Position numbers: made by a program | In this document: piece after piece, positions 33,001 to 41,667 of the stretch | How positions within the stretch are numbered: position 1 is the first letter of the stretch | How the letters are laid out: every line of letters begins with the position of its first letter | DNA from: Candidatus Zixiibacteriota bacterium | GTDB lineage: Bacteria; Zixibacteria; MSB-5A5; CAIYYT01 | Reading direction: 5' to 3' | DNA: 41,667 nucleotides | Assembly (NCBI GenBank): GCA_040235515.1 | Contig: JBECKX010000043.1 | Location: 1-41,667 of the forward strand

Positions 33001-36000
33001 TTTGCGCACCTGCAGGAACCGGGGCGTGGTGTAGCGCTGATAAAGCCAGACTAACACCGCTGCCAGCGGCGATACCGCCAGCACCACCAGCGTCAATTGC
33101 CAGTTGTAAATGAACATGGCAGTCAGCATACCGATCAGCAGCAGGATGTCGCGTACCACCATCACGACGATGTTCGTGAAGAGCTGGCGCAGCGACTCGC
33201 CATCCGACTCAACGCGCGAGAGGAGTCGGCCCACCGGATTCTTGTCGAAAAACGCGATACTCAACCCCATCAGATGGTCGAAGCAGCGACGTTTGAGTGA
33301 CGTGATCACATCCTGGCCGACGATCTCCAGGTGTACCCGTTGAGCGTATTCGACTGAGGCCCCAACGATGAATGAGATCAGAAACGCCAGCGCGCAGAGC
33401 ATCATCGCGGTGGAAGCTGACCCCACCAGCGTTTCGACCGCTGTTGCCGCAGAACTCGAAGGGAGGGCAGCCTCACTCAGGTTCGAGTAATTGTTCGCGG
33501 CCACAGCAATGTCTGTTGCCTGCTGGATCAGGATCGGCCCCACGACCGCCATCGCGGTCGCGATGATCATCAACACCAGGTTGATCACCAGCCGCTTACG
33601 ATGAGGTTTCAGCAGCGGCAGCAACCCGCGAAAGGCGGTTCGCGCCGGAATTGCGTTCTCTTGTTCATCCTGGAAGTATGCTGTATTCATTTTAGTTTCC
33701 TGCCTATCCTGATTCTCAAACTAACTCCGTACTTACCGGTTTCGCTGCGCCACCACCTGTTGCCTCAGAGCGGGGCTCGAAAAGGAGGCACAAAAAAACC
33801 GGACCCTTCACTCAAGGGTCCGGTTCGTGAAATCACGCAGATAATGCCTGGTTTCATGATCGTAAAAGCCTCGCACGACTTTGACGAGACAGGACCCTCG
33901 TTACTGGGCACACCATGCCTAGCGGCTGGTTAGTAACTATGCGTCGGAAATTAATCATCTGAGTCTCTGCCTCCCAGCTTGGAGGGATCATGAATTATAG
34001 GTAAATCGAACTGATAACTTCGTAAGCCGAAATTGGCTTGAGTTTGCCAATAATAGCTCGACATCGAAAAGTGTCAAGAAAAAAATCTGAGGATTCTTTT
34101 CTCAGCGGGATTTCAAACATTCCTGATGACACGATCCAGCGAGGACTCCTTGTGCATAATCAGTTGTAGGCGAATGAGATATACTTTGGCGTCGGGATCA
34201 TCAAAGGCCTGCAATAAAGTTTTGTTAGCAGTGTGGATTGGAGCTGAGCCGGCATCAGATTCCAGAATTTCCTTGCGCCTTGAGGGGGATAGCCCGAATT
34301 TCATTCGTAAATGCAATCACACGTTTTTAGATAATAAGACTGAAGCCCGAACAAATTCAGGGGAGGAAAACAGTGGAAGATCAACAGGACGCTTCGCGGA
34401 TTAACGCAGGCATGGGAGTGGGGGATGCGATCAAGCACGCATTCATTGTTTCCTGGAAGTACAAGTGGTTCTGGCCGCTGGGGTTCATCCTCAATCCCCA
34501 GATTGTCGGTGTCAGCTACTACAATGGAAAGCCAGATTTCGAACGGTTGTTTGAATCGGGGGAGATTTTCCTCTGGATCGGCGTGATCGGACTGTTCGCG
34601 TTCTTCCTGAGCCTGGCCGCAGCCCTGGTCCAGCCGACCTTAATCCTGGCTGTCGATCAGTATCGGCAGGGAAGATCGTCCCGATTCAAGGAGACGATCC
34701 GCGCAGGCTTTGACAGTTTTCTGCCATGCTGGCTGATGGGGTTGCTCTGGTTGGTTGTGGGTATCGCTGCCATGATCATTCTTGTAGTCCCGGTAGCATT
34801 GGCATTTGCCGCATCGCCGGTGGCAGGGGTGCTGGTGATGATGCCGGTTCTGCTCGTGTTGATGGTTGGGGGCTTTCTGCTCATGCCGATAATCTATTTC
34901 GGCTATCGCCACCTCGTCCTCGAGCGGTTGGGAATAATCGCGAGCATCAAGGCCGGGTACAGGACCTTTTTGGAGATGAAGGGCCGGGCGATCGGAACCC
35001 TGCTGGCGACTTTGGCGATAATTTTCGGGGTCAATGTTGTGATCGGGATACCATCCGGGATTGTCCAGATCAGCACGCAGCTTGGCGGGTTTACCGATTC
35101 TCCCGCCTATGCGTTCTATCTTCTGTTTGCGCTTGGTTTCTCGATAGTGTTTCACGGATACTTTCAGGCATTCAGTTCAGCGGTATGGACACTGGTGTTT
35201 CCCGCGTTCGGAAGTGAGCTGGAAACTGTCGCGGAAGTGGAAAGTCGTCCATAGGGCTGCAGATTTCCGGAACATTTGTCGACTCTTTTCGCTATACTAC
35301 GTGGCAAGCTATGAGATTCCCGCGCCTTGCGGAAATCGGCAAACCTGAGACGAATCGGCATGGCTGAGTTGAGAAGCTCCTGAACCGTGTCGGTGCGCGG
35401 CAAGCGGGATGAGTCCTGATTTGCCGCGACAGCAAGATCTTGGGGGTGACCTGGTTTCGACGGGGTTACTGGGGATTAGCCTGCGCGCCGAGATTGTGTC
35501 AATCTCGTTAAACGGGCACAAACCAATTTAAATGGCAACAACTACGCCATTGCTGCCTAATTAGCTGGTAGCTGTCTGCCGTGGGGCCCGCCGTCAGGCG
35601 CCGCGACCAGGCATCAACAATTGACGGCTAGCTTCAAGGCTCGGCTTTGCGGCCGCGAAGTGAAGATTTTTTAGCGAAGCTGGTTTACGGGTAGCGTTGT
35701 CTTCCCGCGATCCCGTAGACGAGATATAAAAGGAAGAACACGCGCGTAGAGGGTTAGTTGACGGTTTCTTCGGACGGGGGTTCGATTCCCCCCACCTCCA
35801 CCAAAATTTATTTTCCCTAACTCATTGAAAGTTAACGGTAAGTGTCTGAAAAACAGGCACTTTTGCACCTATCCTTGCCTGAATAACGCCGAATATCGTG
35901 CAATAACTTACGACGATCATGGTCACAATATGGTCACAATGATCCTGCAAAAGTGGTCCCACCAGACTACATTGTGACCATGGCAAGTCTCTTTCAAAGG

Positions 36001-39000: not shown

Positions 39001-41667
39001 TAGTTTGCTAACGATACAAGAAGGTCAATTGTCCGAAAGGACGATTCCCATTCTTCACAATTTCCTTGAAGTGATGTTTCCGCGTAAGCAGAAGACAAAC
39101 AAGAAGAATCGGCAGTCTGCAATAGCTAATGCTCGATCTACTCAGCAGTACGTGAAACGTCTTGCCTCAGTCCTCATGCCGACCAAACCGTCTTTGCCCA
39201 AGCTCGCGTGGATTCGAGACCTGACAGACCCAGTTCTCACGTTGCTGAAGCGCTGTGAGACGGAACTATCCAGAGCCAAGTCCGATCTATTCTCCAAAGA
39301 ACGAGACCTTCAGCAGGTAAGCAGTATCAAGGCAACCCTTGAAGCGGAGAAAAGAGAATTAGTTGGGAAAACAGCCGTTCTTGAAAAGGACATCGAACAG
39401 CTAAGACTCCAGCTGCAGCAAGAACAGGAGAACCTCAAGAAGTTGCGCATCTGGTGGGAAGAAAAGGTCGAATCTGACAAAGGAGCCCATCTCAACAAGT
39501 TCAAGGCGCAACTTCAACACGAAGTATCTGAGGCCATGATCTGCTTAGCAGGAGACGAACCAAACGTCTCAATGGCGCTGGATAGACTAAAGCGAATCAA
39601 ACAAATGAGCGTGGAATCTGGGGGAAAGTCGTGAACCAACGAGTCGGCATTGGAATTGATTTCGGAACGACGAATTCGGTTGTCTGTATTTACGATAAGT
39701 CAATCAATACCTCAAAGGCATTCTTAGATAGTGGCTTTCCGCACTCTTCCGTGGTGTGGTACCGAGCTGACGGATCTACCCCTCGAGTTGGCAGAGAATC
39801 AAAGCGACAGCTGAGGAGCTACTCGGGAACCGAAGGACACCATTTTGAAGCCTCGATAAAGCGCCAGCTTGGTAGAGGATACGACCAGTACATATTTGGT
39901 CGGAAAGTTTCTGCCCACGAGATTGCGTCAGACATCTTTCGATTTCTGAAGGAGGATGCCTGTGATCAGCGCCCAGACCTGGAATTCTCGGGTGCCATTG
40001 TTACTATTCCAGTCTACTTCGACGGTAAGGCGCGGCGCGATCTACGAATGGCTGCCGACAAGGCAGGTATCTACATAAGATCGTTTATACACGAGCCATT
40101 CGCGGCAATTGTAGGATACCTGATTCGGTCTGACTCTTGGAACAGAATATCGAGTCTGAACGACAGAGTTGTGCTGGTCTTTGATTGGGGCGGGGGTACT
40201 CTGGATATTACAATCGCAAAGATCGTCGACAATCAATTGATCGAGTTATCCATTGGTGGCTTGAATGATCGGGCTGGCGACTATTTCGATGAACAGGTTC
40301 ACAAGTGGGCGTTAGGTAATAGTTGTAATCGCAACAACTTGACTGTTGATGATATCCGAATATTAGCTGGAGACAGGGGACGGCTTCTCACTGAATGCGA
40401 AAGAGCGAAGATCGCATTGTCCGATGATCTGGACGATAAGATCCAGACGGCCCGTGCTTACAGCTTAGGTGAACGGTGGTACGATATCGATGAGGCTGTT
40501 CAGCGAACGGACTTAAATGGGATCGTATCCGCTGATGTTGAAAGAGCAATATCGGAGGTAGAGGCGGTTCTCGCCCGCGCTGGCATATCGCATCATGGCG
40601 TGGATACGGTCTTACTGATTGGCGGCACTTCAAGAATGCCGCTGGTGCGAGACCGACTTCGAGAACTGTTCAGTCACAGGATTGTGGAAATAGAGCAAGC
40701 AGATACAGTTATTGCAGAGGGGGCAGCTGTGATAGATGCCCTCAATTTGCAGCCGATGCTATCTCGGTCGGTCTGTGTAGAATTGGCAGACGATTCACTT
40801 TATCCTGTATTTATGGAAGGAGAGCTCGCGGTTCCAGATCTCTGCAGGAAGACTCTAAGCTTCTATTGCACGGACAATCGGAATGGTGAGGCTAAACTCA
40901 TTCTTAAAGATAGTTCAAACGGATATCGATCGTCCAAACCGGCGTTAAAGCAGATACTAACGCTCCCTGTGTCACCAAATCTTCCAAAACCATACAACCA
41001 TGAGAAAGTGACAGTTGATTTCTGGCTGGATGAGGATTTGATCGTAAATGTTCGAGGAAAAGCAGCTACTCAGAACAAGGGTAATTCATGCGAAATATAC
41101 GACCTGTGCTATGGCTTAAGGCTCCAAAGTCCTGAAGGGGAGTGACAATTTGAAATCAAATGTGGCAGTCAAATCAAACTTAGTTCTGGACCATCCCGAC
41201 TATCGACCAGTCCACCGCTATCTTCCTGGGGATTTCATAAAGAGCATATATCCGGCAAAGATTGATAGGCGAGTCATTGAATCTGAGCTAACAAAGCGGC
41301 AAATCTTCGAGTATGAACAATACCTTGTCTGTATGGTCTGCGGAATGCCCTGCGCGGGGACCTGTGAACTCTCAGATTGTTCGGATTCCGACTAGGAATC
41401 CGCATCGTAGTAGCCTCATCAACATTTGATGATCCCGGGACAGAGTTGGACTGTGTGGTAAGGGAGTAACAGTTGGCTGGTAGAAAGAAGACTTTTCCGT
41501 GCGGACATACAGGCAAGGGCAAGTACTGCCACCGGTGCGCACAAGAGGAGAAACGTAAGCAAGCAATCTTGGAGGCGAAGAGCGAGTGGGAGGATCGCTT
41601 GAGCTTAGCGCCTGTCGAGCTGGGACATCTGCCAAAGGAAGTGGCCGAAAAGGCCCTCGCCGTGATA

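Follow-up and report, generated by a model that had tools for sequence, protein, structure and literature searches.

A four-gene operon centred on a lid-less Hsp70-type ATPase, on an island next to a tmRNA gene: a probable immune system from gene context

We describe an operon of four genes, A-B-C-D, that are co-inherited in fixed order and that, from their gene context, probably form an undescribed immune system. The operon lies at the end of the 41,667-nucleotide contig of a Candidatus Zixiibacteriota bacterium (the window is this whole contig). Our preferred reading, with moderate confidence, is that this module acts by itself against phages or mobile elements and is powered by an Hsp70-type ATPase of its own. 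The initial annotation had proposed an undescribed conflict system with an Hsp70-type ATPase and its own TPR adaptor on a mobile island; this outline, still an inference from context, is now much better supported by the strictly conserved gene order across many phyla, the horizontal spread, the absence of component A from relatives (0/40) and its repeated occurrence inside BREX, restriction and Druantia-like loci, whereas the three-gene anatomy and the rarity that came with it had to be given up. The features of the region are:

35442..35803, plus strand: tmRNA gene (tag GNNYAIAA; ARAGORN), the integration target on the left border of the island
35953..36990, plus strand: tyrosine recombinase/integrase (Pfam Phage_integrase 3.1e-32; phrog_1 9.8e-64)
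36987..37154, minus strand: 55-aa acidic ORF with no assigned function, downstream of the ribbon-helix-helix gene (ORF only)
37175..37345, minus strand: 56-aa ribbon-helix-helix DNA-binding protein (RHH_10 7.7e-6; HicB 5e-5, ribbon-helix-helix part only)
37422..38552, plus strand: component A, 376 aa (start placed by alignment and profile match at 37422)
38549..39634, plus strand: component B, 361 aa (model pLDDT 88.5)
39631..41145, plus strand: component C, 504 aa (Pfam HSP70 2.4e-46, residues 7-489)
41150..41395, plus strand: component D, 81 aa, TTG start (phmmer matches to 19 ORFs that immediately follow the Hsp70 gene)
41473..41667, plus strand: 5' part of a gene for a DUF7682 zinc-binding domain, truncated where the contig ends (Pfam DUF7682 1.7e-14)

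The tight coupling of the first three genes was recovered as previously noted: the ORFs 37395/37422-38552 (385/376 aa), 38549-39634 and 39631-41145 share 4-nt stop/start overlaps at both the A/B and the B/C junction. The module had been taken to end with C; a fourth conserved gene, D, lies beyond that end, and 74 of 79 loci proved to contain its domain. A was recognised in 69 of the 72 fetched loci with at least 2.6 kb of upstream DNA and B in 71; 68 have both, in every case ahead of C and on its strand. In one locus (L005) A and B are fused. Both colinear copies reported earlier were found again, that of the Planctomycetaceae MAG as locus L007 and that of the delta-proteobacterial MAG as L006. 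Relatives are not rare, as had been thought: by pattern scan at least 525 species genomes encode the lid-less Hsp70 (525 of the 603 matched stretches listed encode a relative), and the 80 fetched loci represent at least 14 phyla. A and B, which evolve fast (mean column identity 24% and 15%, respectively), seem rare only to single-sequence searches; C is conserved.

Judged by its sequence, component C consists of an Hsp70-like nucleotide-binding domain of the actin fold and a genuine beta substrate-binding domain. The Pfam HSP70 alignment covers profile positions 2-496 of 599 and the protein ends there, so that the helical lid is missing, in agreement with the initial annotation; the DnaK chains 2v7y and 5obu align through component C residues 489-491. 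Across 24 component C sequences the catalytic residues K77, E155 and D185 and the phosphate-binding loop G187-T190 (GGGT) are invariant and the catalytic D10 is kept in at least 90%, which leaves the ATPase residues intact (K77, E155, D185 and D10 being matched to what we take to be the corresponding DnaK residue numbers). The protein scores 154.5 bits against the DnaK model NF001413, with a cut-off of 648, and is also far under the cut-offs of the HscA models. It is about 28% identical to the genome's own two DnaK-type genes, from which its clade is separate in a tree. Components A, B and D gave no match to a DnaJ or GrpE family at E-values up to 0.1. C also has weak, partial matches to MreB_Mbl (5.4e-5, under the cut-off) and, over residues 287-367, to a PHROG partition protein (6.5e-7). 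These could point to an actin-like, ParM-type segregation system for the island, with the zinc-finger protein as its DNA adaptor. We regard this as very improbable: C aligns to Hsp70 over its full length, beta substrate-binding domain included, and the module is chromosomal and found inside defence operons, its proteobacterial form occurring in 2 of 72,556 plasmid records.

Component A combines a classical C2H2 zinc finger, an Ig-like beta-sandwich and TPR-like helical repeats. The C/C/H/H residues noted earlier are kept in at least 90% of 40 sequences, and C2H2 Pfam families match 3-11 of these 40 members. Its predicted model (pLDDT 86) has generic fold matches only, to Ig-like and TPR proteins (Z ≤ 8.9), much as first described. 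Component B is predicted to comprise a basic N-terminus, a helical domain and a single helix of about 120 residues, and no fold match rose above noise. Neither A nor B of the window belongs to a Pfam, NCBIfam or PHROG family, which extends the earlier finding for these two proteins. A predicted complex of C with B scored 0.56, graded by the tool as weak support, with 0.00 for the best control. Component D, a standalone gene in the window but joined to the Hsp70 protein in another clade, carries a C-terminal four-Cys motif; at least four Cys are present in 56 of 74 D tails. A profile built from the D domain matches residues ~520-610 of Hsp70 forms of 590-646 aa, and in 36 of 76 tree rows D is fused to the C-terminus of component C, at the position where the Hsp70 lid would be. 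In two actinobacterial loci (L040 and L032) it is fused to PF22558 (REase-ARP). By analogy, we propose that A may act as sensor/adaptor, B as scaffold or co-factor of the ATPase, and D as a cap that could take the place of the lid.

The left part of the island agrees with its first description. ARAGORN places the tmRNA gene at the same coordinates, 35442-35803, and the reported integrase at 35980-36990 is an ORF with a Phage_integrase match. The reading frame of the integrase is open from a GTG at 35953, the ATG at 35980 being the start given earlier. The integrase lies directly 3' of the tmRNA gene, and G+C content shifts from 0.54-0.59 upstream to 0.45-0.52 in the island, as in a tmRNA-targeting integrative island. 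Of the claim that the island is bounded by integration, the left end was seen; the right end was not, as the contig stops at 41667, 272 bp past component D and inside the island, and a search of the assembly for a second copy of the tmRNA 3' end found none, the best other matches having E ≥ 0.35. The DUF7682 gene at this end has no counterpart in the 80 module loci; it adjoins the module and does not belong to its conserved set. It is also present on related contigs of runs X4 and X9. Divergent from the operon lies the ribbon-helix-helix gene, a candidate local regulator. Its product, described earlier as HicB-like, matches RHH_10 (26.5 bits) and, with 23.6 bits, profile positions 18-51 of 51 in HicB; the ribbon-helix-helix part of that label stands, the rest of HicB is unmatched. 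A HicAB toxin-antitoxin pair was considered and rejected, the 56-aa protein covering the ribbon-helix-helix end only and the adjoining 55-aa ORF having no HicA match (nor any family above cut-off).

The module is widespread and horizontally mobile. The tree requires 17 phylum changes, and near-identical copies occur across different genera. A block about 94% identical to that of the window was found in two other metagenome studies, and an 8,599-letter contig of run X4 aligns only from its position 1648 onward, corresponding to window position 37221 inside the ribbon-helix-helix gene. Two conjugative plasmids carry the module. Six matches were found among 2.9 million viral contigs, five of which carry A, B and C. 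The integrase, these viral contigs and the match of C to phrog_22485 (2.6e-41, reproducing the earlier search) would fit a chaperone set of phage origin, the remnant of a prophage, an alternative that the initial annotation had itself raised. We find it barely credible: the best match among 50,697 phage records is less than 30% identical and annotated matches are named DnaK or HscA, the six viral loci stand against the hundreds of species genomes counted above, and 0 of 8 scanned ORFs match a PHROG phage structural or replication family.

A related reading is that mobile elements carry the module as a private chaperone set, for their own or the host's benefit, to fold or remodel element proteins or to confer stress tolerance, and not as immunity. 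It would suit the nature of C, a true Hsp70 whose ATPase and substrate-binding domains are intact, a component A that resembles client-binding co-chaperones in its zinc finger, beta-sandwich and TPR repeats, and the carriage on an integrase island, two conjugative plasmids and five viral contigs. However, A and B evolve rapidly and the distribution is patchy, which suits conflict genes better than housekeeping helpers. Recognisable element genes are absent near most loci; 9 of 80 have tRNA genes at a distance of up to 8 kb. Together with the enrichment of strong defence neighbours under a strict count, given next, this makes the private chaperone set unlikely in our view.

Defence genes surround many copies of the module. 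It is situated in BREX operons, in the PglX-PglZ interval (L063, L068) or the PglZ-BrxL interval (L011); it is flanked by type IIG/DrmMI-like methylase and DruE-like helicase genes (L007, L015, L016) and lies directly 3' of HmaB/HmaC (L021, L053). Type III restriction genes accompany it in four loci, with the module directly 3' of the modification/restriction genes (L058, L072) or between methylase and helicase/restriction genes (L023, L042), and type I restriction genes in three (L033, L035, L080). Qat, ZacABC (Zorya-like), Lamassu, GmrSD and a SIR2/pAgo partner are also close to some loci. Strong neighbours, defined as PADLOC matches of at least 250 bits, occurred at 32 of 75 loci and at 2 of 16 random loci (Fisher's exact test, p = 0.025), a comparison with a small control from other genomes and a threshold picked after the crude count had been seen; by that crude count the loci are no different from random ones (50/75 and 9/16 loci, p = 0.57). 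About 57% of loci lack a strong defence neighbour in the surrounding 8 kb. No fifth gene is conserved, the largest cluster of neighbours covering 7 of the 80 loci. None of the eight window ORFs scanned (35953-41667) was recognised as a known defence gene.

This embedding, and the lack of an effector of the module's own, would also be expected of an accessory or regulatory chaperone that assembles, activates or restrains the complexes of methylation-based restriction (BREX, type I/III, DISARM/Druantia-like, Hma) and confers no immunity by itself. Such a role appears improbable, since the systems next to the module belong to many unrelated kinds and a partner of this type is missing at most loci and among the scanned window ORFs. 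BREX loci, moreover, are known to harbour independent inserted systems. In PADLOC-DB v2.0.0 the best match of C is to PDC-M61B at E 0.013 (12 bits), and A, B and D have none at E up to 0.1, so the earlier report of no PADLOC match still stands; a literature search found no description of the module. One annotated copy, carried by a RefSeq plasmid, appears there as an 'Hsp70 family protein' plus hypotheticals.

For a self-contained system we envisage the following mechanism. Component A would sense an invader-derived protein or nucleic acid and feed part of a polypeptide into the substrate-binding domain of C. B would bind C as a scaffold or exchange-factor-like co-factor, ATP hydrolysis by C would clamp or remodel the client, and D would cap the substrate-binding domain and link it to the output. 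In the two actinobacterial versions this output may be the fused restriction-endonuclease domain. Searches of the window's A-D against Pfam, PADLOC, NCBIfam, PHROG and fold databases found no recognisable enzymatic effector domain; in such common versions, the window's included, the output could be the sequestering or unfolding of an essential phage protein. The narrower proposal that follows, of an autonomous effector-less immunity in which a lid-less Hsp70, a fast-evolving C2H2/Ig/TPR adaptor, a scaffold and a lid-replacing zinc domain neutralise a phage protein by ATP-driven clamping or unfolding, is offered tentatively as one possibility. If true, it would be the first prokaryotic defence system with an Hsp70 chaperone as both core and executioner, with the nuclease-coupled variants as offshoots. 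An immune function of any kind would make the module a new family, in at least 525 species genomes and at least 14 phyla among 80 loci, that no PADLOC v2.0.0 model covers. It would also mean that the Hsp70 engine can be the core of a defence system in its own right; this engine is otherwise known as a housekeeping chaperone and, more recently, as guard or sensor partner in other defences. The four-part anatomy, the intact ATPase and the natural fusions (C-D, A-B and D-nuclease) offer cheap and direct experimental handles.

Among known systems, the canonical DnaK-DnaJ-GrpE machine shares with C the fold, the catalytic residues and the beta substrate-binding domain. DnaJ has a zinc module and a beta-sandwich, as A does, and GrpE has a long helix, as B does. 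The present module differs in the missing helical lid, the score of C under the DnaK cut-off, the lack of a J domain or GrpE match and the patchy horizontal spread. For tripartite NTPase-switch immune proteins (STAND/Avs type), the Aravind group describes an HSP70-like NTPase that can take the place of the STAND module (10.64898/2026.10.19.760177). The order of repeat-containing sensor, NTPase switch and output is alike, with TPR-like repeats as the likely sensor; in our module, however, each part has its own gene, the NTPase does not belong to the P-loop STAND class and most versions have no output enzyme. The GTPase-centric tubulin/HSP70 conflict systems, where described by Kaur et al. 2020 (PMC7159879), place an Hsp70-family ATPase, sometimes without peptide-binding domain, in a proposed NTP-dependent thresholding device, with TPR or DnaJ fusions on its partners. 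They are centred on TRAFAC GTPases, which tubulin, GrpE or DnaJ often accompany, whereas the window ORFs scanned (35953-41667) gave no family match to a GTPase, tubulin, GrpE or J domain.

CoCoNuT type III systems (CnuD/CnuCD, Hsp70-McrB fusions), in the sections of Bell et al. 2024 (PMC11090510) that concern them, likewise have an Hsp70-like nucleotide-binding and substrate-binding unit in defence islands. This unit occurs with coiled coils, helical repeats, Ig-like and zinc modules, and the systems are frequently nested in superoperons with BREX, type I restriction or Druantia. What defines a CoCoNuT there is a McrB-type GTPase with a coiled coil (CnuB) together with a McrC homologue, usually with HEPN nucleases, none of which is part of the present module: no AAA_5/McrB or McrBC family was found in the window ORFs, on a contig that ends 272 bp after D, and of the 80 loci only 3-4, all closely related, have McrBC genes after the module (L051, L057 and L067 among them). 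CnuD, compared here by its description, has degenerate Walker A-like motifs and an Hsp70-like unit fused to HEAT-like repeats, whereas the ATPase motifs of component C are invariant and the repeats are carried by a separate protein, component A.

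The feature first described as a mobile three-gene module is real and is bigger than that description. Its three genes, A (zinc finger/TPR protein), B (coiled-coil protein) and C (lid-less Hsp70-like ATPase), were all confirmed, but the set was incomplete: a fourth gene, D, encoding a small Cys-rich protein, lies just beyond the annotated stretch. Features of the putative island and its flanks are listed below.

Features of the putative island beside the tmRNA gene (window coordinates)
35442-35803: tmRNA gene (ARAGORN; single tmRNA found)
35953-36990, + strand: tyrosine integrase ORF, ATG at 35980 (Pfam Phage_integrase, 3.1e-32; phrog_1, 9.8e-64)
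36987-37345, - strand: 55-aa acidic ORF without a family, and 56-aa ribbon-helix-helix gene
37395/37422-38552, + strand: A
38549-39634, + strand: B
39631-41145, + strand: C
41150-41395, + strand: D (81 aa)
41473-41667, + strand: gene opening with a DUF7682 zinc-binding domain (1.7e-14), truncated at the contig end

The A/B and B/C junctions are 4-nt overlaps, D begins 4 nt past C, and the operon is divergent from the ribbon-helix-helix gene. G+C is 0.45-0.52 over the island stretch versus 0.54-0.59 in the 5 kb preceding the tmRNA gene. A second copy of the tmRNA 3' end was absent from the assembly; the contig stops at 41667 and the right island border is not seen. Scanning for promoters and terminators yielded nothing usable, with site counts below those of shuffled sequence. 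Together with the 55-aa ORF, the ribbon-helix-helix gene forms a small two-gene unit separating the integrase from the operon. Its two genes may serve in regulation or excision, or may be a small toxin and its antitoxin, neither option being backed by any family. The ribbon-helix-helix protein matches RHH_10 (7.7e-6) and HicB (5e-5), the latter through its ribbon-helix-helix end only; its former label, HicB-like, is an overstatement because no HicA is present.

The reading of C as an Hsp70 lacking its lid was borne out: the HSP70 match (2.4e-46) covers residues 7-489 and stops at profile position 496 of 599, so the helical lid is absent. C also matches phrog_22485 (2.6e-41), as previously noted. 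It aligns with DnaK chains across the nucleotide-binding domain, and chains 2v7y and 5obu align through residues 489-491, taking in the beta substrate-binding domain. The catalytic residues of Hsp70 are retained: across 24 sequences, Lys77, Glu155, Asp185 and Gly187-Thr190 do not vary, and conservation of Asp10 is 90% or more. C reaches 154.5 bits on the DnaK equivalog model, whose cut-off is 648, and shares 28% identity with the two DnaK-type genes of its own genome.

As the initial annotation held, A and B are without a Pfam family, and the same was true for NCBIfam and PHROG; PADLOC v2.0.0 gave only one match for the module proteins, to C (12 bits, E 0.013). The model of A, computed from 40 sequences (pLDDT 86, pTM 0.76; 385-aa frame), consists of a beta-beta-alpha zinc finger (46-68), a beta-sandwich (72-156) and helical repeats (164-384). 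The finger, Cys-x2-Cys-x11-12-His-x3-4-His with the hydrophobic positions, follows the classical C2H2 pattern, and Pfam C2H2 families were detected in members of the alignment (zf-C2H2_4 in 10/40, zf-Di19 in 11/40, zf-C2H2 in 3/40; best E 1e-5). A fold search with A returned only generic Ig-like and TPR proteins (Z ≤ 8.9). The one lead from the ESM Atlas, a weak one scoring 0.80, was a TPR-bearing archaeal cluster named "C2H2-type domain-containing protein". The N-terminus of A, mostly Met-Gly, or Met-Pro-Thr-x-Gly-Trp in the proteobacterial clade, is unusually conserved and is followed by the poorly modelled first 30 residues.

B was modelled from 50 sequences (pLDDT 88.5) as a helical domain (19-209), a helix of ~120 residues (216-334) and a final helix; no residue beyond the start is invariant in the 50-sequence alignment. 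Fold searches with B (VIA-align wide; Foldseek against PDB) gave noise only (best Z 7.9, best E 0.18), and none of A, B and D has a recognisable enzymatic fold. Three complex predictions for C with B had a median score of 0.56, against 0.00 for controls, which the tool grades as weak support; partner pLDDT was at least 69, and the runs shared at least 93% of contacts. A 501-aa protein of one related locus (L005, 6481-7986) joins most of A (profile 23-317) to the coiled-coil half of B (179-359); a separate B gene is absent there and the D domain was undetected.

Relatives had been reported as rare. A word-indexed search with C gave, among the matches listed, 120 clusters of 399-519 residues (41-97% identical, 79-100% query cover). 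In pattern scans of species genomes (one genome per species; 185,579 species), a single protein found nothing, whereas an alignment of 24 C-type proteins matched at least 603 stretches, at least 525 of them encoding a relative. The best 80 of these loci were examined. Profiles from 40 A and 50 B sequences, built without the L005 fusion, were run as a six-frame search over the 72 loci whose upstream sequence reaches 2.6 kb or more. A turned up in 69 of them and B in 71, with 68 having both (A was missed in L036, L037 and L079; B in L033), invariably on the same strand, upstream of C and in the order A-B-C. Rarity does not hold. A HMMER search with B against 1.84 billion representatives gave 48 clusters at E ≤ 0.001 and just 5 at 1e-10. 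Mean column identity, each protein in its own alignment, is 15% for B, 24% for A and 57% for C; taken with the profile census, these low values for A and B make their seeming rarity a result of fast divergence.

A phmmer search with D matched 19 ORFs in related loci, of which 17 are small and directly follow the Hsp70-like gene; in L048 and L068 the match is instead to the long Hsp70 protein. A profile was built from standalone small proteins only, with fused full-length Hsp70 proteins left out, and it also matches residues ~520-610 of 590-646-aa Hsp70-like proteins of another clade. One clade thus encodes D as a gene of its own, while in the other D is the C-terminal domain of the ATPase and occupies the place at which a normal Hsp70 lid would begin. 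By six-frame census the D domain is present in 74 of the 79 loci with at least 400 bp downstream, and its tail has at least four Cys in 56 of those 74, in a compact CxxCxxxCxxxC or a spaced ribbon-like pattern. The module, a fixed set of four parts, has an active-looking Hsp70 engine, two zinc modules and two fast-evolving non-enzymatic partners.

Two actinobacterial MAGs (L040, 9499-10854; L032, 7963-9294) carry the D domain as the N-terminus of a 443-451-aa protein whose C-terminal part matches PF22558 (REase-ARP, "Restriction Endonuclease associating with ARP"; 9e-12 and 8e-14). We fetched 20 of 21 other REase-ARP loci, drawn from 401 genomes of one class. None of the 20 had module genes, which marks the nuclease as an occasional add-on and not a regular partner; the idea that "ARP" denotes this Hsp70 was rejected on the same count.

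A maximum-likelihood tree of C was rooted with the two DnaK-type genes that the window's genome itself carries. On it the family forms a single clade (support 100) with two main branches, one of 34 rows, including the window, with D separate in all, and one of 42 rows with D fused in 36. Loci with a named phylum represent 14 phyla, and the tree requires at least 17 phylum changes. Cultivated carriers include Pseudomonas reinekei MT1 (L058), Cupriavidus lacunae S23 (L052) and Deefgea chitinilytica (L068). Eight loci (L051, L057, L064, L066, L067, L069, L070, L081) have near-identical C proteins (branch lengths ≤ 0.03) and come from different alphaproteobacterial genera, as MAGs and as isolates, and from one Burkholderiaceae MAG. 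An Armatimonadota MAG (L078) branches immediately outside them, amid alphaproteobacterial rows. This suggests either horizontal transfer in the very recent past or errors in binning.

Closer to the window, A was found in none of 40 relatives of its genome, 20 of which share its family; of the 41 genomes surveyed, 34 are at least 90% complete. Two public metagenome runs from anaerobic-digester studies (X4 and X9) contain a copy of the operon that differs at 256 and 242 letters over ~4.4 kb (roughly 94% identity), spanning 37221/37333-41667 of the window; no RNA run is listed among the public ones that hold the sequence. The DUF7682 gene lacks an equivalent in the 80 related loci, but these contigs extend through it up to the window end. 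In the X4 contig (8,599 letters) the alignment begins only at its own position 1648 and the contig runs ~2.5 kb past the window end; neither run covers the integrase part of the island.

tRNA genes lie within 8 kb of the module in 9 of 80 loci. The module also occurs on two conjugative Paenarthrobacter plasmids, where an IS3 element breaks up A and the RefSeq labels are "Hsp70 family protein" and "hypothetical protein". On one of these (L135; NZ_CP094490.1, 1076-20818) an IS3 transposase splits A, and the flanks hold two DUF262 (GmrSD-type) genes and a methyltransferase/helicase/GIY-YIG cluster. That the module acts as a partition system is a reading to which we give very little credence. A phage origin is just as improbable: searching 50,697 phage records with C gave 18 matches at E ≤ 1e-20, every one below 30% identity and, where annotated, named DnaK or HscA; among 2.9 million viral contigs, a relative occurs at only 6 loci, 5 of which have A and B too. 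Predicted (pro)viruses occasionally carry the module, but it does not form a set of phage genes. A private chaperone serving mobile elements, with no role in immunity, would sit naturally on such plasmids and proviruses; we judge this unlikely. The module is horizontally mobile and also often resident in defence loci.

Residence in defence loci was examined from the gene neighbourhood. PADLOC matches (E ≤ 1e-10) were counted for ORFs outside the module that lie within 8 kb of it and reach 330 aa, in 75 of the 80 loci (L009, L030, L031, L034 and L064 had no qualifying ORFs), with 16 control stretches (L136-L151) taken at a fixed position on contig 1 of other genomes. Any match was found in 50/75 loci versus 9/16 control stretches (p = 0.57, no difference). 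We discarded this crude count as uninformative, as the control matches equally often; with 9 of 16 arbitrary stretches matching, raw match counts are unfit as defence context. The control matches are housekeeping helicases, kinases and ABC-type ATPases (models mad3, GajB/UvrD, RtcR-like, pVip-like and kinase). Strong matches (≥ 250 bits) were found in 32/75 loci versus 2/16 control stretches (Fisher p = 0.025), at a threshold picked after the crude count failed, with a small control from other genomes and with many of the 75 loci related; the two strong control matches are a UvrD-type helicase and a sigma-54 activator.

Insertion within the operons of known systems is more telling evidence than neighbour counts. 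The module sits between PglX and PglZ of BREX in L063 and L068. In L011 its place is between PglZ and BrxL, with GmrSD-like and Mrr-like genes coming after. A type IIG/DrmMI-like methylase and a DruE-like helicase of 1,800-2,170 aa flank it in L007, L015 and L016, and it adjoins a DruE-like helicase in L013 and L028. In L023 and L042 it has a type III methylase on one side and helicase genes on the other, and it is immediately preceded by HmaB/HmaC in L021 and L053 and by type III modification/restriction genes in L058 and L072. Type I restriction adjoins it in L033, L035 and L080, and McrBC genes are downstream in L051, L057 and L067. Close by are also QatA/C (L027), ZacABC (L046, L071, L066), Lamassu (L058), a SIR2/pAgo partner (L062), a Pycsar cyclase (L038), a PLD-helicase with a DUF1156 methylase (L070, L055) and GmrSD-type enzymes (L016, L018, L027, L044, L063). 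No fifth gene is conserved, the largest neighbour cluster covering 7 of 80 loci, but many of the neighbours are signature genes of defence. The module could be an accessory to methylation-based restriction systems; this appears improbable to us.

Among these readings defence is the best supported, and we slightly favour the module as a putative autonomous anti-phage or anti-element system. In such a system, A would be the sensor or adaptor, and B would bind C as a scaffold or an exchange-factor-like co-factor. C would use ATP to clamp or remodel a polypeptide client, while D may cap the substrate-binding domain and link it to an output, which would be a nuclease in the rare versions; in the common versions sequestration or unfolding may itself be the output. 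More speculatively, hydrophobic residues alternate along the N-terminal strand of D, and this strand could fill the binding cleft as a tethered pseudo-substrate.

The housekeeping chaperone DnaK or DnaJ reportedly acts as a partner of other defences, in papers on bNACHT25 and on DancE (PMC13692203). We found no description of the A-B-C-D operon in the literature outside supplements and subscription journals. The nearest described things are three. CoCoNuT systems include Hsp70-like CnuD/CnuCD units and Hsp70-McrB fusions, but their defining parts (PMC11090510) are the McrB GTPase and McrC, and the module has neither. The GTPase-tubulin-HSP70 systems of Kaur et al. (PMC7159879) are defined by TRAFAC GTPases and tubulin, both of which the module lacks. 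An HSP70-like NTPase able to replace a STAND module is mentioned in a 2026 preprint (10.64898/2026.10.19.760177); the design there is single-chain and tripartite, and the module is not so built. We would place the module with the NTPase-centred defence-island systems.
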